A stretch of DNA of 64,000 bases from Candidatus Omnitrophota bacterium. Lineage in GTDB: Bacteria; Omnitrophota; Omnitrophia; Omnitrophales; Aquincolibacteriaceae. The position numbers were made by a program, and so were the translations under genes. Below the pieces are notes generated by a model. It was not told where the DNA came from, ran no database searches, and was given only the letters and a program-made list of their open reading frames with translations. Position 1 is the stretch's first letter; every line of letters starts with the position of its first letter. Positions 19,252 to 34,236 of this stretch are shown here, in pieces. Location of the stretch: assembly GCA_030698625.1 (NCBI GenBank), contig JAUYMS010000028.1, positions 3,854 to 67,853 of the forward strand, read 5' to 3'.

Positions 19252-20841
19252 ATGTCCATCCCTAAGCTCTCGCGATTTCTTCCCGGTCTGATCATCAGCG
19301 CAAGCGTCGGTATTCGCTTAGCAGGAATAACAAGGCCCCTATTGGGGAATTTTGCGGTCTACGGATCGGCACAAGCGATGATCGCGCGGTTTTTTTTGGA
19401 AGGTCCGTTCTCGAGTCTTCTGTATCCGCGTATTAATGTGCTGGTCAACGGAGAGCCGTCTCTTATTCTGCTCTACTATCCGATTAGTTCACTCATCGCA
19501 GCTGCTATGCATACGCTCTTCGGCGGCTCTCTGGATGTGTGGGGCAGGCTTCAAGCCGTCGTGTTCTTTGGCTTGGCGGCGGCATTCCTTTATCGATTAA
19601 TTAGGAAAGTTGCGGATGAAAAAATGGCGGTCGCAGGTTTGACTGCCTTCTGCCTCTTTCCGCTCACGATTATCTACGGGCAGAGCTTTCAAAATGAGAT
19701 GGCTACCATCTTTTTCAGTGTGGGTTTCTTTTGGTACTGGTTACGTCTCGTCGAAACGGGAAAAAAATACCACATTCTCACTGCGGCGATGATGCTGACC
19801 GGAGTTCTTCTGACGCGTCCGAATAATCTATATCTCCTGCTGCCGGCTCTCTATCTGGCGCTGATAAAGGGAAATAAGATTTCTATGGGGCGATTGCTGT
19901 TCTTTAGACTCGTGCCGTGCTTGCTCTTGAGCGCGGTCATCCCGGCCTTATGGTATTTTCATGTCTGGCGGGTATCGGTCGAAGAAAGTAATATTTACAG
20001 CACGATGTTTGCCCAGTTGATGGTGCGGTCGAGCTTTGTGAATCCAATCATTTTGACGGCCGACTATTACAAGAAGCTGTTCGATATGCTGGTAACTATG
20101 TCGTTTACCCCGATAGGTTTCACTCTCTTTGTGGCCGGATGTTTTCTGGCGATCCCCAGATGGCGCGAGGCCGGCTTTTTTGTGCTCTGGTGTCTGGCGT
20201 TTCTCGGTAGCTCCTTGCTCATTCCGAGGAAACTAATTGACCACGAGTTCTATCTGCTGCATTTTGTAACAGCCGGAGCCCCCCTTGTCGGGTTGGGGTT
20301 TTGTGCGATTGCGAGCATGTTTGGGCGTGAAATGCGCGGGCGAGGGGTGTTGCTTGGCTTTTTTTTGCTGTTGGCACTGGGCATGACAATGCGCTATGCC
20401 GCGCATCCTGCATTTAAGACTCCTGCCAGTGAAAGGCATTTCATCGAATTGGCCCAGAAGGTGAATTCGTTAACGGAGAAAGCGAGAAGTCGAATCGTCT
20501 TTCAGGGGACTCATACGCTTTTGTACTATTCGGATCGCTACGGGTGGGGGTTTCACCTAAACCGGACCGGTGATATCGGGGATTACTATAAGCATATGAA
20601 TTGGCAAAAGCTCTCAGAGGAAGAGAGAGGAGCTCGCAACGAGGCGCGCCGTGAAGCAACCACGGATCTTGAATATCTGAGGGAGCATGAGGGGGCAACT
20701 CATTTTGTGGTAACGGATCTTGGCGAGTTTTACACGGATGCCAAGTTTGCCGACCATATGCACCAAACCTACCAGACCCTCTTTGTCGACAAAGAAGTCG
20801 GCATCATCTTTTCTCTAAGTTCTGAAGCCGTATCGCCTTAG
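19252..20841 (+). CDS. ArnT/PMT-like GT-C membrane glycosyltransferase (GT83-like), 529 aa
   Basis: More than 10 predicted TM helices. N-terminal region resembles 4-amino-4-deoxy-L-arabinose transferase-like proteins. Confidence 0.6.
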   Translation: MSIPKLSRFLPGLIISASVGIRLAGITRPLLGNFAVYGSAQAMIARFFLEGPFSSLLYPRINVLVNGEPSLILLYYPISSLIAAAMHTLFGGSLDVWGRLQAVVFFGLAAAFLYRLIRKVADEKMAVAGLTAFCLFPLTIIYGQSFQNEMATIFFSVGFFWYWLRLVETGKKYHILTAAMMLTGVLLTRPNNLYLLLPALYLALIKGNKISMGRLLFFRLVPCLLLSAVIPALWYFHVWRVSVEESNIYSTMFAQLMVRSSFVNPIILTADYYKKLFDMLVTMSFTPIGFTLFVAGCFLAIPRWREAGFFVLWCLAFLGSSLLIPRKLIDHEFYLLHFVTAGAPLVGLGFCAIASMFGREMRGRGVLLGFFLLLALGMTMRYAAHPAFKTPASERHFIELAQKVNSLTEKARSRIVFQGTHTLLYYSDRYGWGFHLNRTGDIGDYYKHMNWQKLSEEERGARNEARREATTDLEYLREHEGATHFVVTDLGEFYTDAKFADHMHQTYQTLFVDKEVGIIFSLSSEAVSP

Positions 20842-20856
20842 CGGAGAGCCAAGTGC

Positions 20857-20890
20857 CTGTCCTGACACTGTCCTGACATCTTATGACATC
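20857..20890. repeat. Tandem 11-bp direct repeat (ctgtcctgaca x2) giving three TGACA half-sites spaced 11 and 10 bp
   Basis: Read directly from the sequence: TGACA at 20863, 20874 and 20884. Located immediately upstream of the promoter -35. Confidence 0.6.
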
Positions 20891-20902
20891 TAATGAATAG
20901 TG

Positions 20903-20931
20903 TTGACCAGTGCCAATGCAGATGCTATTTT
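20903..20931 (+). promoter_or_regulatory. Sigma70-like promoter TTGACC-N17-TATTTT
   Basis: Lies in the 120-bp gap, the largest one on the + strand, ahead of the HTH gene and pse operon. Confidence 0.45.
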
Positions 20932-20962
20932 ACACGAAACTAACCAGAAGTAGGTCCTAGCG

Positions 20963-21265
20963 ATGGAAATCAAAGAGAACGAAATCTATACCCCGAAGGA
21001 AACCCAGGGGTTGCTTAAAGTCAGCGCGAGCACGATGACGCGCCTGATCAAAAGCGGTCTCATTCGTACGGCGAAGGTCGGAAAGCAATATCGCATCATG
21101 GGAAAAGAAATTTTGCGCATGCTGTCTCCCGAATTAGAGGACACGGTGGGCATGTTGTACAACAAGGGGAGGAATTGGGCTCATGAGAATCCCCGGCCGG
21201 AAAAGGCCCCTGAGTCGACTGCAAAAAAACTAAGCGGAGGAAACAGCAATGAATTGGAAAGATAA
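20963..21265 (+). CDS. Excisionase/MerR-family helix-turn-helix DNA-binding protein, 100 aa
   Basis: 'TPKETQGLLKVSASTMTRLIKSGLIRTAKVGKQYRI' HTH_17-type motif. Overlaps pseB by 17 nt. Confidence 0.65.
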   Translation: MEIKENEIYTPKETQGLLKVSASTMTRLIKSGLIRTAKVGKQYRIMGKEILRMLSPELEDTVGMLYNKGRNWAHENPRPEKAPESTAKKLSGGNSNELER

Positions 21266-22235
21266 AGTAGTTCTTATCACGGGCGGAACGGGGTCGTTCG
21301 GACAGAAGTTCGTGAAGACGATGCTCGAACAGTATCACCCTAAAAAGATCGTTATATTTAGCCGTGACGAACTCAAGCAGTTCGAAATGAGCCAGCGCAT
21401 CAATCACGCAAGCGTGCGTTATTTTATCGGAGACGTCCGCGACGTCGAACGGTTAAGGCGCGCTTTTTTCGGAGTGGATATCGTGGTTCATGCCGCGGCT
21501 CTGAAACAGGTCCCGTCATGTGAATATAACCCGTTCGAAGCGATCAAGACGAATGTCATCGGCGCTGAGAATGTGATTACGGCAGCTATTGACCGGGGCG
21601 TAAAAAAGGTGATCGCCCTGAGCACCGATAAAGCCGCAAACCCGATCAACCTTTACGGAGCGACAAAACTTTGTTCGGATAAACTTTTTATTGCAGGGAA
21701 TGCTTATGCCGGTGATCAGCCTACGCGTTTTAGCGTGGTTCGTTACGGAAATGTTATCGGATCGCGCGGAAGTGTTATCCCCGTGTTTAAGAAGAAGAGA
21801 GCTGAGGGGATGATTCCCATTACGGATGAGAGGATGACACGCTTCTGGATCACGCTGGAAAAGGGTGTCGAATTTGTGATTAAGTGTTTTGACATCATGC
21901 ATGGCGGCGAGCTTTTTATCCCCAAGATTCCCAGTATGCAGATTCTGAGTTTGAAACGGGCCATTGCACCCGAGTGTGCGCATACGGTTACCGGAATTAG
22001 GCCGGGAGAAAAGCTGCACGAGGTCCTACTGCCTACCGAGGAGGCGCATCGCGCGATTGAATTTGATGACATGTATGTTGTTGAGCCCAATTTCGAATGG
22101 TGGAAACCCGGTAATCACAGCGGCGGTAAGAAAATACCGGAAGATTTTGAATACCGCAGCAACACGAATGCCGATTGGTTATCGGAAGACGAACTCAAAC
22201 GCTGGCTAGAGGAATCTGACGCAAGTCATGGCTAA
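21249..22235 (+). CDS. pseB: UDP-N-acetylglucosamine 4,6-dehydratase (inverting), FlaA1/PseB-type
   Basis: Near-collinear similarity to H. pylori FlaA1 as I recall it: 'ITGGTGSFG', 'IFSRDELKQ', 'IGDVRD', 'ALSTDKAANPINLYGATKLCSDKLF', 'VVRYGNV.GSRGSV.P'. Confidence 0.9.
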   Translation: MNWKDKVVLITGGTGSFGQKFVKTMLEQYHPKKIVIFSRDELKQFEMSQRINHASVRYFIGDVRDVERLRRAFFGVDIVVHAAALKQVPSCEYNPFEAIKTNVIGAENVITAAIDRGVKKVIALSTDKAANPINLYGATKLCSDKLFIAGNAYAGDQPTRFSVVRYGNVIGSRGSVIPVFKKKRAEGMIPITDERMTRFWITLEKGVEFVIKCFDIMHGGELFIPKIPSMQILSLKRAIAPECAHTVTGIRPGEKLHEVLLPTEEAHRAIEFDDMYVVEPNFEWWKPGNHSGGKKIPEDFEYRSNTNADWLSEDELKRWLEESDASHG

Positions 22236-23385
22236 AAGCCTACTGCCTTACGGCAAGCAGTGGATTGACAAAGACGACGTTCGGGGCGTGGTGCGCACGC
22301 TGCAATCCGATTTCATCACGCAGGGCCCGCGTATTGAGGAGTTCGAAAGACGGATCGCTGATTTTTGCGGGGCTCGATACGCGGTGGCATATTCGAGCGG
22401 TACTGCCGCGCTTCACGCCGCTTCTTATGCGATTGACCTTGGTCAGGGCGACGAGGCGATCACGTCGCCGATCAGCTTTATTGGGACTGCTAATGCCATC
22501 GTTTTCCAGCGTGCGCGTCCGGTTTTTGCCGATATCGAGCTCGACACGGTCAATCTTGATCCGAGTGAGGTCGAGAAAAGGATCACTTCACGCACGAAGG
22601 CCATTTTTGCCGTTGATTTCGCGGGCCATCCGGCCCCGCTCAGAGAACTCAAGCGTATCGCGAAAGCAAAAGGGCTCTATGTTGTCGAAGACGCGGCGCA
22701 TGCGCTAGGTGCGAAATATCACGGGCGTCGCGTTGGGGCATTGAGTGACATCTCCATTTTTAGCTTTCATCCGGTCAAGCATATCACGACAGGCGAAGGA
22801 GGCATGGCGCTGACAAACAACGCGAAATTGTGCCGCCGCCTGAGGTTGTTCAGAAATCACGGCATGGTTCGAAGCGATGAGCTTTCCGAAAAGCACGGGC
22901 CGTGGTACTACGCCATGGAAGACCTTGGGTACAACTACCGGGTGAGTGACATTCAATGTGCTTTGGGATTATCACAGTTCCGAAAAGTGGAGCGCTTTTT
23001 GAGATTACGCAGAAAATTGGCGGCTTCTTATCTTAAAAAGTTGAAGGGTGTGAGCGGGATCATCTTGCCGAAAGAGAAGATGGGGATTGAATCCTCCTAC
23101 CATCTCTTCGTGATTCAACTGAAGACGGCGCTTAAAGCACAGAGGCGTATTCTGTTTGAGGAGATGCGCCGTCGCGGCATCGGTGTGAACGTCCACTATA
23201 TTCCGATACACCTTCAACCCTATTATATTAAAAACTTTGCTTATAAAGCGGGAGACTATCCGAACGCCGAACTGTATTACTCTCGGGCATTGACATTGCC
23301 TTTGTTCCCCGCCATGCGTGAACGGGACGTAGACCAGGTCGTTCAGGTGCTTGTGAAAAGCCTGGCCGGGCTAAGGAGCGCCTAG
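22228..23385 (+). CDS. pseC: DegT/DnrJ/EryC1 PLP aminotransferase, UDP-4-keto-6-deoxy sugar transaminase
   Basis: DegT-family architecture with a conserved Lys region. Positioned directly after pseB. Confidence 0.8.
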   Translation: MAKSLLPYGKQWIDKDDVRGVVRTLQSDFITQGPRIEEFERRIADFCGARYAVAYSSGTAALHAASYAIDLGQGDEAITSPISFIGTANAIVFQRARPVFADIELDTVNLDPSEVEKRITSRTKAIFAVDFAGHPAPLRELKRIAKAKGLYVVEDAAHALGAKYHGRRVGALSDISIFSFHPVKHITTGEGGMALTNNAKLCRRLRLFRNHGMVRSDELSEKHGPWYYAMEDLGYNYRVSDIQCALGLSQFRKVERFLRLRRKLAASYLKKLKGVSGIILPKEKMGIESSYHLFVIQLKTALKAQRRILFEEMRRRGIGVNVHYIPIHLQPYYIKNFAYKAGDYPNAELYYSRALTLPLFPAMRERDVDQVVQVLVKSLAGLRSA

Positions 23386-24872
23386 TGATGGGCGCAATAC
23401 TTTTACGTGCAGACGGTAACGCTCATATTGGGGTGGGGCACCTTATGCGGTGCCGCGCATTAGCGGAAGCCGCGAGCGTGCAGGGGATTCGCGCCTCGAT
23501 CGCGTCCGCTGACGATAGGACGGATGTTCCTGTTCTTCGTGTGAATGCGGCAAGCGGCACGGACAAGGACGCCAAGGCGACGATCGGTCTCGCGCGGCAG
23601 TGCGAATCATCGTGGATTGTCGTTGACGGTTATCAGTTTGGGGCCGGCTACCAGCGCGCTCTTAAAGATGCGGGGCTTTCGGTTCTCGTAATGGATGACG
23701 GAGGGCATTCGGAACATTATTCCGCGGACGTTATCGTGAATGCGAATGTGCATGCACACGATGACTTTTATCGCAGCCGTGAGCCTTACACGAAATTGTT
23801 GCTTGGCACGCGTTACGTTTTTATGCGGCAGGAGTTTCTAGAGTTCCGGAGGCAACGTAAGGCGCGTGGCAGTGTGAAGCGCGTCCTTGTGACGCTAGGC
23901 GGGGGCGACGCACCCAATGCCACGCTCGCTGTGCTGTTGGCGCTTAGCAAAATCACGAAGATGGACTTCGAAGTTGTTGTCGCGATCGGGCCCGAGAATC
24001 CTCATCGCGAGAGTTTGGAAGCCTTTGCTGCCGAAAGTGCTTTGGACGTGAAGCTTGAATCGGGCTTGAATCAAATGGCGCGTTTAATGGCTGAGTCAGA
24101 CATCGCTATCGCGGGTGCCGGATCAACGAGTTGGGAATTGGCATACATGGGCGTACCGCAATTGGCGGTGGTGATAGCGGAGAATCAACGTCCTGTTGCC
24201 GAGGAGCTGGAACGTCTTGGGGTTGTCATGAGGCTCGGGGATACTAGGGATCTCAAGGGCGAGGCTACCGCAAAAAAAATCGCCGAAGTATTCGGAGACG
24301 ATGGGATCCGGGAGCAGATGCGCCTTCGAGGGACGGCGCTTGTCGACGGATTAGGGGTAAGGCGGGTGCTGGCTGAAATGGGGCTCGGGGAGTTTTCGTT
24401 GAGACGAGCGCGTCCCGATGACTGCGAACATCTCTATGAGTGGAATAATCAGGCGGATGTGCGGGCCGTCTCATTTTCGACGGATCCTATTCCTTACGAG
24501 AGTCACCGGAAATGGTTTGCTGCAAAATTGAGTGATCCGGCATGTCGGATCTATATTGCCTTGGATCGCCAGGGTGCGCGAATGGGCCAGGTTCGTTATG
24601 AAATCAGCGGAAATGAAGCCGAAGTCGCCATCGTGGTGGATTCGCGTTATCGAGGCAAGCAGTACGGGGCTCTCATGATAGAACGTGCCACCCAAATTGT
24701 CAGAGCGGAGGGCGCAATCGAAATCGTTCACGCTTATATAAGGGGTGATAATGAAAAATCGAGCGGTGCTTTCCGTGCCGCCGGGTTCGTCGACGCGGGA
24801 AAGGTGAGTATTAAAGGCTGTGAGGCGGCGCACTATCTATATGAAAAGCAAAATATTACCGCAGGCATCTAA
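23385..24872 (+). CDS. Fusion of PseG-like UDP-sugar hydrolase (N-terminal) and GNAT N-acetyltransferase PseH-like (C-terminal)
   Basis: N-terminal 'ILLRADGNAHIGVGHLMRCRALAEA' is the PseG signature. The C-terminal ~170 aa is a GNAT fold 'EWNNQADVRAVSF...RYRGKQYG'. Confidence 0.7.
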   Translation: MMGAILLRADGNAHIGVGHLMRCRALAEAASVQGIRASIASADDRTDVPVLRVNAASGTDKDAKATIGLARQCESSWIVVDGYQFGAGYQRALKDAGLSVLVMDDGGHSEHYSADVIVNANVHAHDDFYRSREPYTKLLLGTRYVFMRQEFLEFRRQRKARGSVKRVLVTLGGGDAPNATLAVLLALSKITKMDFEVVVAIGPENPHRESLEAFAAESALDVKLESGLNQMARLMAESDIAIAGAGSTSWELAYMGVPQLAVVIAENQRPVAEELERLGVVMRLGDTRDLKGEATAKKIAEVFGDDGIREQMRLRGTALVDGLGVRRVLAEMGLGEFSLRRARPDDCEHLYEWNNQADVRAVSFSTDPIPYESHRKWFAAKLSDPACRIYIALDRQGARMGQVRYEISGNEAEVAIVVDSRYRGKQYGALMIERATQIVRAEGAIEIVHAYIRGDNEKSSGAFRAAGFVDAGKVSIKGCEAAHYLYEKQNITAGI

Positions 24873-25914
24873 GATCCATATAGGCGGACGACGGATAGGT
24901 CCGGGGGAACCCGTCTATATTGTGGCCGAGATGTCTGCGAACCATCATCAAGATTATGAGGAGGCCGTAAACATTCTGCGTGCGGCTAAAGACGCCGGAG
25001 CGGATGCCGTGAAAATCCAGACTTATACGGCTGATACGATTACCCTCCGTTCGGACAAAGATTTTTTTCGCCTTAGCGGCGGGACTCTTTGGGATGGGCG
25101 TCAGCTTCACGACCTTTATCGCGAGGCCTATACTCCGTGGGAGTGGCAGCCCAGACTTAAAGCCATCGCGGAGGAGATCGGCCTGGATCTTTTTTCGGCG
25201 GCATTTGATCCGACCGCTGTCGAATTTTTGGAAAATATGGGCGTGCCTGTACACAAGGTTGCATCCTTTGAAATTGTAGATATCCCGCTCATTCGGTGCA
25301 TGGCTCGAACAGGAAAGCCTCTAATTATTTCAACAGGCATGGCCTCCCGTGAAGAAATTGGGGAGGCCGTGGAGGCTGCCCGCCAAAGCGGTGCTGTGGA
25401 AATCGCCATTTTGAAATGCACCAGCGCTTATCCGGCCCCGCCAGCAGAAATGAATCTTTTGGCCATTCCCGATTTGGCAGCTGCCTTTGAGGTGCCTGTA
25501 GGGCTTTCCGATCACACCCTCGGGATTACCGTCCCGGTGGCAGGCGTAACTTTGGGAGCGTGCATTGTTGAAAAGCATCTGACGATGACACGCTCAAAGC
25601 CGGGGCCGGATTCCGCCTTTTCTCTAGAACCTCATGAATTTAAATACATGGTAGATGCAATTCGGACCGCCGAAAAGTCGCTAGGGCGGGCGGACGCTTT
25701 GCCGAGTGAGCGTGAGCTTCCGATGCGCTCGCTCAGGCGCTCTCTCTTTGTGGTTGCCGATGTAAAGGCCGGAGATTTGATTACCGAAAGGAATGTTCGT
25801 TCCATTCGGCCTGGGTATGGACTTCACACGCGCCACATGGGCGAGGTGATCGGCAGACGAGCCGTGCGCGATCTTGAAAAAGGGACTCCGTTGGCATGGG
25901 AGATGCTGACATGA
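24841..25914 (+). CDS. pseI: Pseudaminic acid synthase, NeuB family with C-terminal SAF domain
   Basis: 'IGGRRIGPGEPVYIVAEMSANHHQD' NeuB N-terminus. Start moved to ATG 24841. Confidence 0.85.
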   Translation: MKSKILPQASKIHIGGRRIGPGEPVYIVAEMSANHHQDYEEAVNILRAAKDAGADAVKIQTYTADTITLRSDKDFFRLSGGTLWDGRQLHDLYREAYTPWEWQPRLKAIAEEIGLDLFSAAFDPTAVEFLENMGVPVHKVASFEIVDIPLIRCMARTGKPLIISTGMASREEIGEAVEAARQSGAVEIAILKCTSAYPAPPAEMNLLAIPDLAAAFEVPVGLSDHTLGITVPVAGVTLGACIVEKHLTMTRSKPGPDSAFSLEPHEFKYMVDAIRTAEKSLGRADALPSERELPMRSLRRSLFVVADVKAGDLITERNVRSIRPGYGLHTRHMGEVIGRRAVRDLEKGTPLAWEMLT

Positions 25915-26477
25915 GCATCCTAAGCGAAACTCAGAATAAATTGCGCGGCAAAAAGTTCAATCTGCGCCCGCTAGTCGTCGCAGACGTTTCGGACGCATAT
26001 ATAGGCTGGCTCAATGACCCGGTTGTGAATCAGTTTCTTGAAGCAAGATTTTCAAAACAGAGCACCGAAACGGCGCGTGCCTATGTTGCGGGTTATTACG
26101 AGGGTGGCGAGAAATATATTTGGGGAATTTATCCTCAAGGATCTAAAGACTTCATCGGAACGGCGACGCTTAGTGAGATTCGACCGGAGCACGGATGGGG
26201 AGAAATCGGACTGCTGATCGGAGATAAGCTTTTTTGGGGCAAAAATGCTTCAACGGAGGCGCTGGATTTAGTCGTCAAGTTCGGTTTTCAGGTCTTGAAG
26301 CTCCGGCGGCTCACCGGGGGCAGTTACGCACCAAATCTTGGTATGAACTTTACTTTTAAGCGTTGCGGTTTCCGCTGCGAGGCGAAATTGGTTCGGGCCT
26401 ATCGGCTAGGCGAGAATCAGTACGTCGACGGTTACCGTTGGGGCTTGTTGGCAGAGGAATGGAGGGAACGCAAGTGA
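25911..26477 (+). CDS. GNAT-family N-acyltransferase (RimL-like)
   Basis: GNAT fold motifs. ATGA overlap with pseI. Confidence 0.7.
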   Translation: MSILSETQNKLRGKKFNLRPLVVADVSDAYIGWLNDPVVNQFLEARFSKQSTETARAYVAGYYEGGEKYIWGIYPQGSKDFIGTATLSEIRPEHGWGEIGLLIGDKLFWGKNASTEALDLVVKFGFQVLKLRRLTGGSYAPNLGMNFTFKRCGFRCEAKLVRAYRLGENQYVDGYRWGLLAEEWRERK

Positions 26478-28270
26478 ACGCCATATTCGATGCCCTCAAG
26501 CCGACGCCTGCGTCCTATCTAAAAGCAGAACGGGAGATTTCGACGGGAAAGGAGGGCTCGCTCAGGCATGTGCGCGTTGCCGTGCTTGGGACTTTCACGA
26601 CAAACTATTTGAAGCCTTATCTTACTGTAGAGGGCGCGCGCCGCGGATTGTCGATTGATGCCTATTTCGGTCCGTTTAACCAAATGGAGCAGGAAACCCT
26701 TGATGAATCGAGTGCGCTCTATCAGTTCGACCCCGACGTTGTGATTGTTGCCTCGCGCCTGGAAGAAATGACGCCCGATCTGGTAAACCGGTTCTTGAAG
26801 TTAAGCGCAGAGGAAATCGATGCTCTCGGTGAGCGTTCTCTGGAGCGCTTACGGGCGCTTCTGCAGGCTGTGCGGCAGAAGACGGCCGCCACAGTTCTTC
26901 TATTTAACTTTGCGCCGCCGTCGCTGCTCAACGCGGGTCTGGCAGATGCGGGAATGGTAGATTCGCAGACCGCTGTGATTTCGCGGCTCAACGGGAGCTT
27001 GGCGCGAGTGGCCGGAAGTCTGAGCGGGGTTTTTGTTTTTGATTTGGCTCGCGTCATTACCGAGGTCGGGATTCGGAGGGCATTTGATGCCAAGCTCTGG
27101 CATATGGCACGACTCCCGTTTAGCGTGGATGCCCAGATTGCGATCGGGGAGCGTTTGGCTCGTACAATTCGTGCTGCGGTTTTGCCGCCGTGTAAATGTC
27201 TCGCCGTCGATCTGGATAATACGCTATGGGGCGGTGTGGTTGGGGAGGACGGCCTCGGAGGGATTGCGCTCGGAGATGAATGCCCGGGCAATGCTTATAA
27301 GGATTTCCAGCGCGAATTGCTTTCTCTGCGCGATCGCGGCGTGTTGTTGGCTATTGCGAGCAAGAATAACGAGGACGACGCGCTGGCCGTATTCGACAAA
27401 CACCCGGACTGTCTTTTAAAGCGAGAGCATTTTGCTGCAACGCAGATTCACTGGGGGGATAAGGCGGAAAGTTTGCTTGCGATTGCTCAGGAACTCAATT
27501 TGGGGCTCGACTCGGTGGCGTTCCTCGATGACAGCCCTGCAGAAAGGGAGTGGGTGCGCATGAAAATGCCGGAAGTCCTGGTCTTGGATTTTCCGGCAGG
27601 ACCGCCGACTTTTCGAACGATCGAGGAGTCGGGTGCCTTTGACCAACTTGTCATATCCGGAGAGGATCGAGAGAGGACGATTTTTTACCAGCGCGAGAGT
27701 GAAAGGTCGAAGCTGCAAACCCAAAGTGTTTCATTAGAAGAATTCCTGGGGGACCTCGATATTACGGTATCCATCGGTCAAGTGGATAACGATACGCTGC
27801 CTCGCGTCGCTCAGCTCGTAGGAAAGACAAATCAATTCAATCTGACCACGCGGCGGCATACCGAAGGGGCCATTTCAGACATGCTTAGCCGGGGTTGCAT
27901 CGCGCTTTGGATGCGCGTTAAGGACCGCTTCGGTGACTACGGACTGGTGGGGGTTGCGTTGGCGATGCCGTTAACAGCAAAGCGTTGGGAAATTGATACG
28001 TTTCTACTCAGCTGCCGCATGATCGGACGCCGCGCCGAAGATGCGCTTCTGGCTGTTCTGATCAGGCAGATTAGCGCCCGGGGAGGGGAAGTGGTTGAGG
28101 GGGTGTATATCCCCACAGCCAAGAATGCGCAGGTTAAAGCCTTTTTCCCCGCACGCGGCTTTCGGGTATGTGGGACGGAAACCGACCGCTGGGAGTGGGA
28201 TCTTTCTCAGGGGAGCTATCTCGCGCCGGATCTTTTGAAAGTGAGATTTGATGATGAGTCCGATGACTGA
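26459..28270 (+). CDS. FkbH-like HAD-superfamily (IIIC) domain protein
   Basis: 'CLAVDLDNTLWGGVVGEDG' HAD motif I typical of FkbH. About 600 aa with a C-terminal GNAT-like domain. Confidence 0.75.
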   Translation: MEGTQVNAIFDALKPTPASYLKAEREISTGKEGSLRHVRVAVLGTFTTNYLKPYLTVEGARRGLSIDAYFGPFNQMEQETLDESSALYQFDPDVVIVASRLEEMTPDLVNRFLKLSAEEIDALGERSLERLRALLQAVRQKTAATVLLFNFAPPSLLNAGLADAGMVDSQTAVISRLNGSLARVAGSLSGVFVFDLARVITEVGIRRAFDAKLWHMARLPFSVDAQIAIGERLARTIRAAVLPPCKCLAVDLDNTLWGGVVGEDGLGGIALGDECPGNAYKDFQRELLSLRDRGVLLAIASKNNEDDALAVFDKHPDCLLKREHFAATQIHWGDKAESLLAIAQELNLGLDSVAFLDDSPAEREWVRMKMPEVLVLDFPAGPPTFRTIEESGAFDQLVISGEDRERTIFYQRESERSKLQTQSVSLEEFLGDLDITVSIGQVDNDTLPRVAQLVGKTNQFNLTTRRHTEGAISDMLSRGCIALWMRVKDRFGDYGLVGVALAMPLTAKRWEIDTFLLSCRMIGRRAEDALLAVLIRQISARGGEVVEGVYIPTAKNAQVKAFFPARGFRVCGTETDRWEWDLSQGSYLAPDLLKVRFDDESDD

Positions 28271-28505
28271 AGACAGGCTTTGCCGGGTCCTTGCCGAAGT
28301 ATTCGGTGTGCCGGCGGAACAGATTAACGAAGACAGCAGCCCGGATACCATCGAGAATTGGGATTCCGCATCGCATATCAATATGATCTTGTCTCTTGAA
28401 TCGGAGTTCGATGTGAAGCTGACCCCCGAGCATGCCATGGAGATGTTGTCGGTAAAGCTCATTCGGATGATTTTGGAAGAGCTCGGGGTTAAAGATTTCA
28501 AATGA
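28248..28505 (+). CDS. Acyl carrier protein
   Basis: 85 aa. 'ENWDSASHINMILSLE' phosphopantetheine-attachment Ser context. Confidence 0.7.
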   Translation: MMMSPMTEDRLCRVLAEVFGVPAEQINEDSSPDTIENWDSASHINMILSLESEFDVKLTPEHAMEMLSVKLIRMILEELGVKDFK

Positions 28506-29683
28506 AGACAGCCGTCCGGTCACAATATGAAGTAGGCCAGGTATTTCGGACCAGCATCGATGTGGACCAGAAACTGGTCGAACGGTTTGCCGATTTTTCC
28601 GGCGACCGTAATCCGCTTCATATGGACGCAGGCGAAGCTCAGTCTTACGGGTATGCGCGCAGGGTTGCGCACGGGGGAATCCTCATCGCCTTTTTATCAA
28701 AACTGATCGGTATGGAAATCCCCGGACCGGGAGCGGTGTGGATGAACCAGCAGGTGGATTGGACAAGTCCGGTGTTTGTCGGAGATGTCGTGGAATTGGC
28801 TGTGACCGTCGAGAAAATATCGACCGGCGCGGGAATGCTTACGCTGGATGTCACGGCGGCAAATCAGAAAGGGAAGACGGTTATGAAAGGGAAAGCGAAT
28901 GTTAAGGTTGCGGAAAAGATCGAGCAGAAAAGTGCTCAAAAAAAAAGCGTGAAGACGGCCCTCGTAACGGGTAGCGGCCGCGGTATCGGCGCAGAGATAG
29001 CTCGCAAACTGGCGGCAAGCGGGGTGAAGGTTATCGTCAATTGTCGCAAGTCGGTTCACGAGGCTGAGGGGGTTCAGCAGGAGATCAGGGCCTTGGGCGG
29101 CACAGCGGAAGTGATGCAGGCAGATCTCTCGGACTATGCGCAGACGGAAGCGATGATCGATAGCATTATTAAGCAATTCGGTAGTTTGGATATTGTGGTG
29201 CATGGCGCGTCGCCTATGGTCACTCCGGCGATGGCCGATCAAGTGACGCAGGAGCGGCTCGATCATTTTTTTAGGGCTTATGTCGGAGGGGCCAGGAGTC
29301 TTGTCGCAAAGGCGGCGCCTGCGATGGCGGAGAGAAAATTTGGGCGCTTCATTTTCTTGGGAACGTCGTTCATGTTTGGAATCCCTCCGGCAGGCATGAG
29401 TGCTTACGTTACCGCAAAGGAAGCCTTGTGGGGATATGTGAAGTGTCTGGCCGCAGATCTCGGGCCGTCGGGCATTACATCCAATATGGTCTCTCCGAGC
29501 ATGACGGTCACTGATTTTACCGCCGATATTCCGGCTCGCATGAAAGAGCTCGAGGCACGGAAGAGTCCGATGCGACGCATGGCTTCCGTGGCAGATACCG
29601 CAGCAGCCGTGGTTTTCTTGGCGGGCGAGGATGCGTCTTATATTAACGGCAGCAATCTGCCGGTCACCGGAGGGCCCATTTGA
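28502..29683 (+). CDS. MaoC-like hot-dog dehydratase fused to FabG-like SDR reductase
   Basis: N-terminal hot-dog region 'GDRNPLHMD...'. C-terminal 'ALVTGSGRGIGAEIARKLAASG' SDR. Confidence 0.75.
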   Translation: MKTAVRSQYEVGQVFRTSIDVDQKLVERFADFSGDRNPLHMDAGEAQSYGYARRVAHGGILIAFLSKLIGMEIPGPGAVWMNQQVDWTSPVFVGDVVELAVTVEKISTGAGMLTLDVTAANQKGKTVMKGKANVKVAEKIEQKSAQKKSVKTALVTGSGRGIGAEIARKLAASGVKVIVNCRKSVHEAEGVQQEIRALGGTAEVMQADLSDYAQTEAMIDSIIKQFGSLDIVVHGASPMVTPAMADQVTQERLDHFFRAYVGGARSLVAKAAPAMAERKFGRFIFLGTSFMFGIPPAGMSAYVTAKEALWGYVKCLAADLGPSGITSNMVSPSMTVTDFTADIPARMKELEARKSPMRRMASVADTAAAVVFLAGEDASYINGSNLPVTGGPI

Positions 29684-30681
29684 GCCAAGCTATCGAGCAA
29701 ACCAGGGTACTGGTAAGCGGTTGCGGATCGATCGGTAAGCGGCATATCGCAAACTTGCAAGCGCTGGGGCTCTCCGCGATTACGGCAGTAGACCCGGATA
29801 AGAGCGCTTGCATGGAGGCCGAGCGAAAACTTGGCGTCCGGATAGCGGTCTCTTTTGAGGAAGCTCTTCGGGAGCGGCCCGACATTGTTGTCGTGGCCAG
29901 CCCCAATCACGTGCACATGGAACAGGCATTGCAAGCGGCGAAGGTTGGCGCGGACCTTTTCATCGAGAAACCTCTATCTCATGAAATGACCGGTGTCAAC
30001 GAGCTCTTGACTTACGTGGAGCAGAACCGGCTTGTGGGTATGGTGGGTTGCAATATGCGTTTTCATCCGGCGATCTCGAAGATAAAAGAGGTCCTGTCCG
30101 AGCAAAAACTAGGCAAGGTCTATTCCGTTCAAGCCGAGTTTGGCTTTTATTTGCCATGGTGGAGGCCGGGCAAGGACTACCGTGAAAATTACGGCGCCAG
30201 AAAAAGGACGGGCGGAGGTGTGATTCTTGATGCCATCCATGAAATCGATGCCTTGTGGTGGTTTTTTGGCCCCGTTCGCCAGGCAATGACGTTGTCGCAG
30301 AAGCAAAGTGATCTCGAAATTGAAACTGAGGACGTGGCGGAAATCTCGCTCAGGTTTGCAAACGGTGTGCTGGGGCATATTCACCTGGACTATCTTAACC
30401 GCCATTATGCACGTAACCTTAAAATTATCGGCAAGCAGGGGACGCTCGAGTGGGACTGGAACCAGGAATTCATACGGATCTTTCGCGAAGGGGACAGCCC
30501 GGCCGAGGAGTATGCGGTGCCCGCTCGTGAGAACCCGAACGAAATGTATCGTGATGAAATGCGCCATTTTCTCAGCTGCGTGGCAGAAAGAAAAACTACG
30601 ATTTGTCCGATTGAGGATGCGGCTGAAGTTCTGAGCGTGGCGATGTCGGCAAAAAGATCTTCAGAGATGGTACCGCAATGA
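29680..30681 (+). CDS. Gfo/Idh/MocA-family oxidoreductase
   Basis: 'VLVSGCGSIGKRHI' Rossmann fold and 'EKPL' motif. Confidence 0.75.
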   Translation: MSQAIEQTRVLVSGCGSIGKRHIANLQALGLSAITAVDPDKSACMEAERKLGVRIAVSFEEALRERPDIVVVASPNHVHMEQALQAAKVGADLFIEKPLSHEMTGVNELLTYVEQNRLVGMVGCNMRFHPAISKIKEVLSEQKLGKVYSVQAEFGFYLPWWRPGKDYRENYGARKRTGGGVILDAIHEIDALWWFFGPVRQAMTLSQKQSDLEIETEDVAEISLRFANGVLGHIHLDYLNRHYARNLKIIGKQGTLEWDWNQEFIRIFREGDSPAEEYAVPARENPNEMYRDEMRHFLSCVAERKTTICPIEDAAEVLSVAMSAKRSSEMVPQ

Positions 30682-31523
30682 AAAAGAGTATTTTTGTCCA
30701 GGCCCGGATGGGATCAAGCCGATTGCCCGGAAAGGTGATGGCGGATCTCTTCGGGCGCCCGCTTCTCGAGCGTCTGGTGGAGCGGCTGCGGCGATCGACG
30801 AGCGCAGATCAAGTGGTGGTGCTTACTAGCAGTGCGGAAGCGGATCAAGCGATTGAGGACTTGGCATATGCAATGGACGTTCCCGTTTTCCGGGGCGACG
30901 AAGATGATGTGTTAGACCGTTATTTTCAAGCGGCAAAGAAGTTTCAGCCGGATGCCATTATCCGCGTCACAGGGGATTGCCCTCTGATTGACCCAAGAGT
31001 CATTGACCAGGTTGCGTCTTTTTTTGAAACGGAAGACCGGGATTATGTGAGCAATATCCTTATCCCGACTTTTCCCGACGGGTTGGATGTGGAGATTTTT
31101 AGGATTGAGGCGCTCGAGAGCTGCTGGCGTAACGCGCGGGAAAAGTACCAGCGCGAGCATGTGACGTCGTACTTCTACGAAAACCCGGACCTCTTTCGTC
31201 TGGCTAATTTCCGGTCCCCTGTCGATCGTTCCGCTATGCGCTGGCTAGTCGACGAGGCTCCGGATCTCGTGTTTGTGCGAAAAGTGTATGAGCGTCTTTA
31301 TCCGGATAACGCAACATTTTTATACGCCGACATTCTTGCCCTTTTGGACCGCGAGCCGGAATTACAGACATTGAATGCGCACCTGCGCAGGAACGAAGGA
31401 TTTTTTAAGAGTAAAGACGGAGCGTCGGCCCATGCGGCGGAAGATGCGCGTTCCGGCTGGGCGCGCTATATCCAAGAAATTATGCAGAAAAAGGGATGTG
31501 AGCTATATGAATCTGTCGGTTGA
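30678..31523 (+). CDS. pseF: CMP-nonulosonic acid cytidylyltransferase (acylneuraminate cytidylyltransferase / SpsF family)
   Basis: 'VQARMGSSRLPGKVMADLFGRPLL' N-terminal signature. Confidence 0.75.
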   Translation: MKKSIFVQARMGSSRLPGKVMADLFGRPLLERLVERLRRSTSADQVVVLTSSAEADQAIEDLAYAMDVPVFRGDEDDVLDRYFQAAKKFQPDAIIRVTGDCPLIDPRVIDQVASFFETEDRDYVSNILIPTFPDGLDVEIFRIEALESCWRNAREKYQREHVTSYFYENPDLFRLANFRSPVDRSAMRWLVDEAPDLVFVRKVYERLYPDNATFLYADILALLDREPELQTLNAHLRRNEGFFKSKDGASAHAAEDARSGWARYIQEIMQKKGCELYESVG

Positions 31524-32799
31524 CGGGTTGAAGGAATCGGTTGCGTTGTGGAAAAAGGCCGCGGACTTGATCCCCGCAGGAACCCAAACGCTCAGTAAGG
31601 CGCCCAATCAATTTGTTGAAGGGGTTTACCCGAAATTCATCGAGCGGGGTAAGGGAAGCCATGTCTGGGATGTTGACGGTAACGAGTATATCGATTACCC
31701 GTTATCACTAGGCGCTGTTTTACTGGGTCACTGCTACCCGGTGGTGGATAAGGCGATTACAGACCAGCTGAAGAAGGGGATCGTTTTTTCGTTGATGCAC
31801 CGGTTGGAAGGTGAAGTCGCCGAGCGGGTTCGCGCGCTGGTTCCTTGTGCCGAGCAGGTGCGGTTTTCAAAGACAGGCTCGGAGGTGACTACGGCGGCCG
31901 TGCGTGTTGCGCGTGCGGCGACGGGCCGTAAGAAGATTGCCTACTGCGGGTATCACGGATGGCATGATTGGTATGCCGTGACCACCACACGTTCCAAGGG
32001 GATTCTTCCCGAACTTTCGGAGTACATGCTCCCTTTTACCTATAACGACATTACGACACTGGAAAGGATTTTTCAGGAGAACCCCGATGAGATTGCGGCG
32101 ATCATCATGGAGCCGGTTGGGCTTGAGGCCCCGAAAGGGGATTTTCTTAACAGTGTCCAGAAATTGACGAAACAACACGGCAGTCTGCTTATCTTTGACG
32201 AAATGATCACGGGTTTCCGCATGGCGAGGGGCGGGGCCCAAGAATATTATGGAATAACCGCGGACCTGGCGACCTTCGGGAAGTCGGTTGCCAACGGAAT
32301 GCCGCTCAGTATCTTGGCGGGTAGGAAGCAATTCATGAAAGAATGCGAAGAGATCTTTTTTTCCACAACATTCGGAGGCGAGGCATTATCTCTGGCGGCT
32401 GCGCGTGCGGTCTTGGATGAGATCGTTGAAAAGCCAGTGGTGGCTCATCTGTGGACTCAGGGGAGGAAATTAAAAGACGGTTTTGCACAACTTGCGGCGG
32501 AAACCGGAGTGCAAGCCGCGTTTTCAGGGTTTCCGGTTCGGCAGTTTCAGGTATTTAGGGATGCTGAGGGCGAAATCTCTACAATTCATAAAGCTCTGTT
32601 CTGGCAGGAAACGATCAAGCGTGGTGTGCTTTTCGGAAACGCTCAAATGATTTCATATTCGCATTCTGACGAAGACATCAAACGCACTCTGGAAGTGTGC
32701 GGAGAAGCCCTGCATGTTGTAGGGTGCGCCGAAAGAGAAGGCCGTTTGGAAACGGCTATGGAAGGAAAACTTCCTACAGAGATATTCAGAAAGCCCTGA
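31507..32799 (+). CDS. Class III PLP aminotransferase (glutamate-1-semialdehyde aminomutase-like)
   Basis: The signature region of glutamate-1-semialdehyde aminomutase-type class III PLP aminotransferases ('YCGYHGWHDWY'). Internal ATG 31507 chosen as start. Confidence 0.7.
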   Translation: MNLSVDGLKESVALWKKAADLIPAGTQTLSKAPNQFVEGVYPKFIERGKGSHVWDVDGNEYIDYPLSLGAVLLGHCYPVVDKAITDQLKKGIVFSLMHRLEGEVAERVRALVPCAEQVRFSKTGSEVTTAAVRVARAATGRKKIAYCGYHGWHDWYAVTTTRSKGILPELSEYMLPFTYNDITTLERIFQENPDEIAAIIMEPVGLEAPKGDFLNSVQKLTKQHGSLLIFDEMITGFRMARGGAQEYYGITADLATFGKSVANGMPLSILAGRKQFMKECEEIFFSTTFGGEALSLAAARAVLDEIVEKPVVAHLWTQGRKLKDGFAQLAAETGVQAAFSGFPVRQFQVFRDAEGEISTIHKALFWQETIKRGVLFGNAQMISYSHSDEDIKRTLEVCGEALHVVGCAEREGRLETAMEGKLPTEIFRKP

Positions 32800-32806
32800 G
32801 GAATTC

Positions 32807-33418
32807 ATGATAGCGATTATTGATTATGAAATGGGAAATTTAAAGTCGGTGGCAAATGCCTTTAAGGCCGTGGGTGTTGAGCCCTGCATTACACGTGATC
32901 CGTCTGAGCTTTCAGCGGCGGATCGGATTGTTTTGCCGGGGGTTGGCGCATTCGGCAACGGAATGGAGCGGCTTCGACGATTGGGTTTTGTCAGGGCCTT
33001 GGAGGAAAACGTCCGAGAGAAAAAGAAACCCTTCTTGGGTATTTGCCTTGGGATGCAGCTTCTGGCAACCAAAGGTTTTGAGTTCGGAGAGCATGCAGGG
33101 CTGGGCTGGATTGAGGGAGAGGTCCGCAGACTCGAATCCCCGGACTTGCCCGTGCCGCATGTCGGATGGAATGACGTGGCTGTCACACAGTCGTCGCCGC
33201 TGCTCGAGGGGATAGGCGATAAAGCCGACTTCTATTTTGTTCACAGTTATCATTTCGAAGCAGCGCAACCCGATAGCGTTACAGCCACTTGTGAGTACGG
33301 TCAACGCTTCGCAGCGAGCGTGAGCCATGGGAATATCTTTGGGGTCCAGTTTCATCCCGAGAAGAGTCAGAAGGCCGGTAAACATTTGCTCGAAAACTTC
33401 CTGAGGATCAGCGCGTGA
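32807..33418 (+). CDS. HisH-like class I glutamine amidotransferase subunit
   Basis: 'MIAIIDYEMGNLKSV' plus the Cys-His-Glu triad context. Sits in a sugar locus, not a his operon. Confidence 0.8.
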   Translation: MIAIIDYEMGNLKSVANAFKAVGVEPCITRDPSELSAADRIVLPGVGAFGNGMERLRRLGFVRALEENVREKKKPFLGICLGMQLLATKGFEFGEHAGLGWIEGEVRRLESPDLPVPHVGWNDVAVTQSSPLLEGIGDKADFYFVHSYHFEAAQPDSVTATCEYGQRFAASVSHGNIFGVQFHPEKSQKAGKHLLENFLRISA

Positions 33419-34236
33419 AGAAAAACCGTTTAATCCCTGTACTCCTTTTGAAGAACGGCTGGCTGGTACAGAGCAAATCATTCCAGCGTTATCAGAATCT
33501 AGGCGACCCGATTACATCTGTTCGGCGCCTGAGTAATTGGGCGTCAGACGAGCTCATCTTTTTGGATATGACGCGAGAGGGAGGCTATGACATGCGTCGG
33601 GATGACAAAGGCCACCCGAATCGGCATGATATCCTGGAGATTATCGAAGACGTTTCTAAGGAATGCCTAATGCCGATTGCAATCGGCGGGCGCATTAGAA
33701 CGCTTACGGATATTATGGTAAGGCTGGCGTCGGGCGCCGACAAGGTTTGCGTTAATACGAAACCGTTGGAGGACCCCGCGTTTATTACCGAAGCCGCGAG
33801 GGAATATGGGTCCCAATGCATTATCATTTCGATCGACGCGAAGGTTTCGGGCGAGGGGCGGTGGGAGGTCTATAAGGACGGCGGCAAGGTCGCGACAGGA
33901 CGGGACCCGGAGTCTTGGGCACGTGAAGTGGAATCGCGCGGTGCCGGCGAAATTCTGATCAATTGTATTGACCGCGACGGTGCGCGTACCGGCTACGATC
34001 TGGATCTCGTAGGCCGCGTCAGTGATGCCGTGAGTATTCCGGTGATTGCCATGGGCGGCGTTGGGGAGTGGGAGCATTTTGCCGAAGCGCTGAGCCGCAC
34101 AAAGGCGGATGCGGTCGCGGCTGCGAACATCTTTCATTACTATGATCAGAGCGTCTATTTGGCAAAGAAGTACCTGCACGACCGGAACTTCAACGTGCGC
34201 GCTCCGGACCTCATACCCGTTGAAGTGACAACGTGA
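33415..34236 (+). CDS. HisF-like cyclase/synthase subunit
   Basis: 'LIPVLLLKNGWLVQSKSF' (beta/alpha)8 HisF-like N-terminus. Confidence 0.8.
   Translation: MKKNRLIPVLLLKNGWLVQSKSFQRYQNLGDPITSVRRLSNWASDELIFLDMTREGGYDMRRDDKGHPNRHDILEIIEDVSKECLMPIAIGGRIRTLTDIMVRLASGADKVCVNTKPLEDPAFITEAAREYGSQCIIISIDAKVSGEGRWEVYKDGGKVATGRDPESWAREVESRGAGEILINCIDRDGARTGYDLDLVGRVSDAVSIPVIAMGGVGEWEHFAEALSRTKADAVAAANIFHYYDQSVYLAKKYLHDRNFNVRAPDLIPVEVTT

Follow-up and report, generated by a model that had tools for sequence, protein, structure and literature searches.

Direct repeats one helical turn apart before a small HTH_17 gene in a pseudaminic-acid operon of Omnitrophota: a candidate self-regulating switch

In a 64,000-nucleotide (nt) stretch of contig JAUYMS010000028.1 from a Candidatus Omnitrophota bacterium (the window, meaning the whole stretch of DNA that was analyzed), a gene for a 100-residue helix-turn-helix (HTH) protein of the HTH_17 type stands first in a pseudaminic-acid (pse) operon and is preceded by a row of direct repeats in phase with the DNA helix. 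The HTH protein probably binds these repeats and autoregulates the operon, a reading that draws on the sequence, a structural model, and comparative analysis and to which we assign a probability of about 0.6. The same combination of protein, repeat, and operon recurs across Omnitrophota and probably represents a self-regulating switch for surface-sugar synthesis that has not been described before. A dedicated small regulator, with autoregulated or phase-controlled glycosylation, had been suggested earlier from the letters of the window alone (the sequence-only reading). A dedicated and probably autoregulatory regulator stands as the best reading of the conserved array, because known members of the protein's fold family bind direct repeats that lie one helical turn apart.

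To our knowledge, the control of nonulosonic-acid synthesis (pseudaminic, legionaminic, and sialic acids) is little known beyond a few flagellated pathogens, and we know of nothing on it for Omnitrophota. A full-text literature search retrieved no paper on nonulosonic acids in Omnitrophota and none that connects excisionase-type regulators to pseudaminic acid. Members of this phylum are widespread, almost entirely uncultured, and very small cells, whose surface is likely important for attachment to other cells. The arrangement described here offers a concrete pair of protein and putative operator, conserved in hundreds of species-level genomes and testable in vitro without culture.

Repeat array upstream of the HTH gene

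The ATG of the HTH gene at 20963 is separated from the stop codon of the preceding PMT_2 gene by 121 nt, and the elements of this region are listed below. Scores are those of a position weight matrix (PWM) made from related loci, with the window left out.

20857..20878, plus strand: perfect tandem duplication CTGTCCTGACA x2 (100% identical in a repeat search), source of units 1 and 2 and of the sole 11-bp spacing
20862..20892, plus strand: three strong units CTGACACTGT, CTGACATCTT, and ATGACATCTA (2.1, 9.2, and 13.2 bits)
20893..20902, plus strand: degenerate fourth unit ATGAATAGTG (TGAAT), in phase (2.1 bits)
20903..20912, plus strand: fifth unit TTGACCAGTG, whose first six bases are the -35 hexamer TTGACC (7.7 bits; identical in the close relative L173)
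20923..20931, plus strand: extended -10 element TG-c-TATTTT, 17 nt past the -35
20938..20962, plus strand: predicted 5' leader of about 25 nt, its start point placed from the position of the -10
20963..21265, plus strand: gene of the HTH_17 winged-helix protein, 100 amino acids (aa; Pfam HTH_17)

The repeat search also reported 2.3 copies of TGACATCTwA at 20874-20896. The TGACA motifs start at 20863, 20874, and 20884, with the spacings of 11 and 10 bp that the sequence-only reading had given for three TGACA half-sites. These positions and spacings are correct, but the elements are direct repeats rather than half-sites, and they belong to a series of five registers (20862, 20873, 20883, 20893, and 20903, spaced by 11, 10, 10, and 10 bp), the last of which is the -35 element. 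The three best three-unit phased PWM scores of the window all fall at the array (24.5, 24.5, and 23.0 bits); the next-best score is 14.5 bits, and 20 shuffles of the window gave a mean maximum of 13.1 bits and an absolute maximum of 20.8 bits. The array is the unique top match in the 64-kb window. A palindromic operator for a dimer was considered and rejected because the TGTC..GACA symmetry is confined to the window-specific duplication, where it is incidental; the palindrome TGTCCTGACA, allowing at most one mismatch, occurs four times in the window versus 2.0 expected. An Rfam scan of 20600-21400 gave nothing above noise, so that a riboswitch or leader RNA is not indicated.

The array recurs with the gene. 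One genome of each GTDB species was scanned, which gave 263 encoded relatives of the HTH protein; 80 loci were retrieved, 43 of them labeled Omnitrophota and the rest mostly unclassified or automatically labeled metagenome-assembled genomes (MAGs). Most loci carry a similar array within 140 nt 5' of the start codon (for example, ttgactactaatgacatctattgacat). Counted over 81 loci and 570 kb of flanking sequence on both strands, 43 of the loci have a chain of at least three TGA[CT] cores at 10- or 11-bp spacing on the coding strand no more than 200 nt 5' of the homologue, and only five such chains occur elsewhere, which gives an upstream enrichment of about 600-fold. All five outlying chains are on the same strand, farther upstream; in L045, L071, and L075, the array is separated from the HTH gene by a radical-SAM or methyltransferase gene and marks the start of the operon. 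A leave-one-out PWM reaches at least 18 bits within 250 nt upstream in 55 of the 81 loci versus 4 loci elsewhere. Across the family, the consensus unit is ATGACAACTA (TGACWWCTAW), arrays contain 3 to 10 units, and of 123 spacings, 121 measure exactly 10 bp.

Three close relatives were also fetched, L173, L174, and L175, with protein identities of 88%, 82%, and 74%. In the upstream alignment of the four orthologous loci (the window and these three), the intervening bases differ, but no change is seen in the TGA cores, the TTGAC, or the -10; the TGAATA of unit 4 is kept in L173 and L175. L175 also shares the gene order of the window (GT2, methyltransferase, PMT_2, HTH, and a pseB-like gene). The array is, by its conservation, a cis element tied to this HTH gene family.

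The arrays themselves are mobile in length. The 11-bp duplication is absent from L173 and is therefore a recent, window-specific duplication of a unit. In L065 (3860-4000), the HTH gene is preceded by TAACTAATGA in ten perfect copies. Arrays evidently gain and lose units by slippage. Duplication of units is the sole fact that bears on the phase control of glycosylation suggested by the sequence-only reading, and no evidence for such control was found. That the repeats are nothing but non-functional slippage products in an intergenic spacer is strongly disfavored. The perfect duplication in the first two units and the similar perfect 10-bp arrays in unrelated metagenome contigs are what slippage would produce, but the TGA cores hold their 10-bp phase across loci with otherwise unalignable flanks, and slippage does not fit the enrichment upstream of the HTH gene.

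A metagenome scan with the strict pattern TGACWWCTAWTGACWWCTAWTGAC found an HTH homologue 35-123 nt downstream in 10 of 72 evaluable matches. The matches are mostly perfect 10-bp tandem repeats on contigs of unknown, often low-GC, origin. Among these, L112, L142, L145, L150, and others are low-GC (28-35%) contigs with perfect TGACAACTAA or TGACTACTAA tandem arrays and no HTH homologue downstream, and on one such contig the array precedes the gene for an 827-aa protein. In L115 (minus strand, array 2026-2003), a TGACATCTAT-type array stands 14 nt upstream of the gene for a distant 152-aa HTH_17 protein (MVMDELLTLPQVAKLLGLAERTIYVW...), which hints at related pairs of repeat and HTH_17 protein outside the close family.

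The repeats could instead be read by another factor, such as an OmpR/PhoB-type response regulator, or be stacked -35-like or UP-like polymerase elements, with the HTH protein acting on another target; this we consider quite unlikely. The unit does hold TTGACA-like hexamers, and ATGACAG is the reverse complement of CTGTCAT, the pho-box half-site. In the three loci where the HTH gene is not first, the array tracks the start of the operon and not the HTH gene. Response regulators also bind tandem direct repeats (PMC5859096). However, the array lies beside this gene family and essentially nowhere else in the 570 kb of flanks, no response regulator is seen among the neighboring gene families of the related loci, and the units are oriented opposite to pho boxes. 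The HTH protein, moreover, belongs to precisely the fold class that is known to read repeats one helical turn apart.

Family and predicted fold of the HTH protein

The description of the first cistron as a 100-aa HTH_17 DNA-binding protein whose gene overlaps pseB was confirmed. Pfam HTH_17 (PF12728) matches residues 9-54 with an E value of 1.2e-9 and 38.8 bits against a cut-off of 27, and no further Pfam domain was found in the protein. Its sequence is the same as that of an NCBI entry from a Candidatus Omnitrophota MAG. There are 785 homologues at an E value of at most 1e-3, mostly 70-85% identical over the first 75 residues; this 75-aa core is conserved, and the C-terminal tail differs in length and sequence. 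An alignment of 35 members has 32 invariant columns, among them S21, S23, T24, and R27 of the recognition helix, the wing G40-I45, and, in a family-specific segment at 55-74, residues S55, P56, E59, D60, G63, Y66, N67, R70, W72, and H74. An exhaustive profile search over 1.84 billion representatives, counted as clusters at 50% identity, retrieved 8 clusters at an E value of 1e-30, 84 at 1e-10, and 1657 at 1e-3. With so few close clusters, the close family is tight and nested in a broad HTH_17 superfamily. The same search retrieved three proteins with four to six tandem HTH_17 domains each (P0131, 263 aa; P0170, 280 aa; P0179, 479 aa). These resemble a covalently joined head-to-tail array, in which a single chain might read direct repeats.

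A family-profile sequence search of the PDB gave no meaningful matches and did not retrieve BldC, which made a comparison of folds necessary. The AlphaFold2 model has moderate confidence for residues 1-55 (predicted local distance difference test score, 71-81) and the topology beta-H-H-beta-beta-H; a helix at residues 56-73 has low confidence, and a disordered tail follows. The top Foldseek match in the PDB is Xis of mycobacteriophage Pukovnik (4j2n), with a target template modeling (TM) score of 0.80, a root mean square deviation of 1.5 Å over 50 residues, and a probability of 1.00. The BldC-DNA complexes of Streptomyces (6ama/6amk) match with target TM scores of 0.6-0.69, probabilities of 0.93-0.99, and 23-26% identity, and the winged-HTH domains of GlnR, RacA, and MerR-type proteins come next. 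On the basis of this model, the protein is predicted to be a small stand-alone MerR-like winged helix without coiled-coil dimerization or effector domain.

An hhalign comparison pairs Arg30 of BldC with the invariant R27, and Thr27, Thr29, and Lys33 with T24 (also invariant), T26, and K30. In BldC, Arg30 makes a specific guanine contact at a 5'-YpG-3' step, and Thr27, Thr29, and Lys33 contact phosphate (PMC5859096). In the array, every unit contains an invariant TG, a YpG step, followed by an A/T-rich stretch. Recognition helix and TGAC core are both highly conserved, which leaves little room for covariation. In the subclade of L063, L065, and L067 (HTH genes at 233, 4001, and 4001), the wing reads TGRAGKQY instead of AAKVGKQY and the arrays are rich in TGAT (TGATAACTAA), which may be a case of protein-DNA covariation in these three loci.

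The label "excisionase-type" given to the protein in the sequence-only reading applies only at the level of the domain. That the protein is a true excisionase, a recombination directionality factor (RDF), with the repeats as arm-type sites at the edge of a mobile glycan island, is very improbable. Its best structural match is a phage Xis, and weak family matches point the same way: TIGR01764 "excise" scores 27.8 bits, just under its cut-off of 28.8, and PHROG excisionase families match with E values of 4.5e-5 and weaker. Glycan loci are, in addition, often exchanged horizontally. The excisionase reading fails because the context lacks integrases and viral relatives: no integrase family is among the top 25 Pfam families on either side in 72-73 loci, and no relative of the protein was found on 2.9 million viral contigs. 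The gene also appears coupled translationally to biosynthetic genes within co-directional glycan clusters, and the protein is 70-85% conserved across the phylum while the cargo varies.

Promoter geometry and sign of regulation

The promoter TTGACC-N17-TATTTT proposed in the sequence-only reading is present, with the -35 at 20903-20908, the -10 at 20926-20931, and a TG at 20923-20924. Its match to consensus is not unusual by itself, and a promoter scan is uninformative (3 sites in 4 kb versus 3.5 expected), so that the call rests on conservation in L173. There, both hexamers and the 17-nt spacing are conserved while the sequence of the spacer has changed; TGCTATTTT is the same, and 6 of the 17 spacer bases differ. 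Relative to the predicted transcription start, strong units 1-3 are centered at about -75, -64, and -54. In several relatives the -10 hexamer ends 6-10 nt before the start codon of the HTH gene (L005, L017, L021, L031, L032, and L046, upstream of position 4001; L174:3985-4003; L175:4008-4024), and their mRNAs are probably leaderless or nearly so, in contrast to the predicted leader of the window. A further difference lies 5' of the array, where L173 has a long perfect GC-rich hairpin (195-262; cccccagggacaggttcaa ... ttgaacctgtccctggggg) that is probably a terminator insulating the operon. The window has no equivalent hairpin, which makes read-through from the PMT_2 gene possible.

A sigma-70-like hexamer pair is found in 40 array-bearing loci. 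The distance from the last array unit to the TGAC of the predicted -35 is an exact multiple of 10 bp in 32 of these, which fall into three layouts.

-35 is the last unit of the array: 11 loci
-35 follows the last strong unit by 20 bp, separated from it by a degenerate unit: 7 loci (the window, L049, L050, L066, L077, L080, and, by inspection, L173)
-35 is at the first or an inner unit, with further units across the spacer as far as a TGATA-type -10: 14 loci

Many array promoters are near consensus, with TTGACA-17-TATAAT in L047, L070, and L080. A contiguous filament would cover the -35 in all three layouts and the whole core promoter in the third.

In the proposed mechanism, the HTH protein would be a monomeric MerR-like winged-helix (HTH_17) regulator of the BldC/Xis structural type, and its operator would be the row of 10-bp direct repeats before its own gene. 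Protomers would bind cooperatively, head to tail, one per helical turn, with nucleation on the strong units at 20862-20892; at rising protein concentration, the filament would spread over the weak unit at 20893 to the -35 unit at 20903. As the first cistron, translationally coupled to pseB, the regulator would have a level that follows the output of the operon. This would close an autoregulatory loop on the pseudaminic-acid operon, most probably of negative feedback on an intrinsically strong sigma-70-type promoter.

Activation by the protein is somewhat improbable. A filament at -54 to -75 would then recruit RNA polymerase, and the positive cooperative loop would yield a bistable ON/OFF surface glycan, a form of phase control. 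Cooperative multimerization combined with positive feedback is a classic recipe for bistability. The strong units of the window and of seven further loci are 5' of the -35 with a weak unit between (the -35 being 20-30 bp past the last strong unit), which is the position of a class I activator. BldC and RdfS, too, are both able to activate (PMC11963761). In the 14 loci where the array extends through the spacer to the -10, however, bound protein would exclude polymerase, and in 11 loci the -35 itself is the last unit. Repression is favored over activation because the array covers near-consensus promoters, which should need no activator, and it is roughly three times as likely, given binding and autoregulation. 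A more elaborate switch, bistable or heritable, for sialic-acid-like surface glycans is doubtful. In it, cooperative filaments together with feedback from the first cistron would split the cells into ON and OFF subpopulations, slippage of whole 10-bp units would reset the threshold, and residues 55-75 could sense a pathway product such as a CMP-nonulosonate. If they did, this would be the first effector-responsive protein of the BldC/Xis type.

Several observations weigh against binding of the repeats by the HTH protein and repression of its own operon. The Foldseek E values are weak (0.01-0.1), as expected for a 50-residue domain, and the likeness to BldC in sequence is marginal (in hhalign, residues 6-36 pair with BldC 9-39, 31 columns of the HTH only, with a probability of 44% and an E value of 2e-4). 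About a third of the loci have no clear array within 250 nt, although some of these (L045, L071, and L075) carry one farther upstream, before the preceding gene. In 62 of the 72 evaluable metagenome contigs, the strict repeat pattern has no homologue downstream; the repeat sequence is not exclusive to the HTH protein, and the motif by itself is not diagnostic. Because the unit is similar to the -35 consensus, part of the signal could stem from promoter sequence. As to the sign, the position of the strong units in the layout of the window also suits a class I activator.

Operon context and comparison with known systems

The genes around the array are co-directional, and those of pseudaminic-acid synthesis are contiguous.

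19252..20841, plus strand: 529-aa PMT_2 membrane glycosyltransferase-like protein (Pfam PMT_2, E value 5e-9), ending 16 nt before the array
21249..22235, plus strand: pseB (NCBIfam TIGR03589 PseB, 521 bits versus 408), with a 17-nt overlap with the HTH gene
22228-23385, plus strand: pseC (NCBIfam equivalog PseC, 467 versus 424)
23385-24872, plus strand: pseG-GNAT fusion (NCBIfam PseG, 209 versus 154; GNAT by Pfam)
24820-25914, plus strand: pseI (NCBIfam PseI, 456 versus 340)
25896..34236, plus strand: further co-directional operon genes (GNAT, FkbH-like, acyl carrier protein [ACP]-like open reading frame [ORF], MaoC-SDR, GFO oxidoreductase, cytidylyltransferase, aminotransferase, and HisH/WbuZ amidotransfer pair)

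With PseB, PseC, PseG, PseI, and an N-acetyltransferase encoded in one direction, the pse operon is genuine by its sequence matches; the cytidylyltransferase at 30678-31523 does not reach a PseF model. The 17-nt overlap between the HTH gene and pseB suggests translational coupling. A second intergenic gap, at 28271-28501 (231 nt), is only apparent, as it is filled by the 85-aa ACP-like ORF (28248-28505). The FkbH-like protein, ACP-like ORF, and MaoC-SDR fusion (26363-29683) and the HisH/WbuZ pair (32807-34236) suggest that the pseudaminic acid is additionally acylated and amidinated.

The sequence-only reading had called a dedicated small regulator heading a nonulosonic-acid operon unusual. 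Within Omnitrophota, it is the rule. In tblastn searches with enzymes of the window (PseB, PseC, NeuB, cytidylyltransferase, and PseG), 71 of the 80 loci have a nonulosonic-acid gene homologue on the same strand within 4 kb downstream, and only three loci have one upstream. Most of the nine loci without a match have little downstream sequence, and the exceptions inspected still encode glycan genes (flippase, UDP-sugar dehydrogenase, 2-epimerase-like proteins, and DUF2079). The first protein downstream is a PseB-type Polysacc_synt_2 dehydratase in 34 of 73 cases, NeuB in 10, a DegT aminotransferase in 7, and a CMP-sugar cytidylyltransferase in 3. In most loci, the next ORF starts at about -53 to +50 nt from the stop codon of the HTH gene, frequently with overlap. 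The upstream neighbor is on the same strand in 67 of 72 loci and is chiefly PMT_2/PMT (18 and 9 of 73, the commonest), B12-radical SAM, GT2, or methyltransferase.

In some genomes the HTH gene is present twice, each copy at a different glycan locus (L072/L079, on the same contig JAHFHG010000011.1; L025/L041; L064/L068). L079 has no array and lies between a B12-radical SAM gene and a gene for a DUF2079 membrane protein. Since their recognition helices are nearly identical in sequence, the duplicate copies could cross-regulate.

If autoregulation through the repeats is correct, head-to-tail binding of the BldC/Xis kind would extend from developmental regulators and recombination factors to a dedicated regulator of a metabolic operon. 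The unusually sharp motif would make a good system for learning how such filaments read DNA. The array can be used as a marker for promoters and surface-glycan operons in Omnitrophota MAGs.

Among known systems, BldC of Streptomyces, also of the HTH_17 family, forms cooperative head-to-tail multimers on direct repeats that vary in number (PMC5859096). Like BldC, the HTH protein is predicted to consist of one small winged-helix domain that lacks both a coiled coil and an effector domain, and the predicted fold matches; the guanine-reading arginine and the phosphate-contacting residues of the recognition helix appear conserved in the marginal hhalign alignment. BldC targets vary in number of direct repeats at a spacing of about one turn, and here 3-10 phased 10-bp units lie upstream in 43-55 of 81 loci, depending on the measure. 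BldC is a global developmental regulator with loose specificity for repeats of about 9 bp, AATTxxxx(C), whereas the HTH protein is paired with the defined 10-mer TGACWWCTAW, and its apparent target is its own operon. It also has a conserved segment at 55-75 (SPxxEDxxGxxYNxxRxWxH) that BldC does not possess.

The Xis/RDF group (Pukovnik Xis, 4J2N, the best structural match; lambda Xis; 186 Apl; and RdfS) shares direct repeats one turn apart and cooperative filaments. RDF sites are described as direct repeats one helix turn apart (PMC7498355). The filaments of RdfS are head-to-tail, each protomer spanning one turn of DNA, and RdfS activates some promoters and is a repressor of its own (PMC11963761). 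Apl (PMC7498355) and RdfS (PMC11963761) double as transcription regulators. Unlike the genes of RDFs, the HTH gene has no integrase, att site, phage, or integrative and conjugative element around it; it is chromosomal, phylum-wide, and coupled to sugar biosynthesis.

The best NCBIfam model is MamR of the magnetosome island (NF040990; E value 5.5e-10, residues 2-54), but at 39.4 bits against a family cut-off of 100 the likeness is to the shared HTH_17 domain only. Omnitrophota include magnetotactic members; no magnetosome genes lie near the HTH gene in the window. A canonical MerR system was rejected: there is no C-terminal coiled coil or effector domain, the spacer has 17 nt rather than 19-20 bp, and direct repeats lie at and upstream of the -35 instead of a palindrome in the spacer. 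PhoB/OmpR boxes are direct repeats of 10-11-bp periodicity that overlap or replace the -35 and are read by a protein with a receiver domain and a winged helix; here, in contrast, an intact, strong -35 is present, and the orientation of the units is reversed relative to pho boxes.

A parallel in design logic is UpxY/UpxZ of the capsular polysaccharide loci of Bacteroides, where a small dedicated regulator gene heads each surface-glycan operon. Those regulators are NusG-like antiterminators that act on elongation and not at a promoter operator; the proteins are unrelated to the HTH protein. The class of mechanism proposed here is thus familiar, whereas the family, the operator, and the target pathway are undescribed. 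The sharp 10-bp unit, the conserved C-terminal extension, the coupling of a first cistron to biosynthesis, and the phylum-wide link with nonulosonic acids set this arrangement apart from the known examples.

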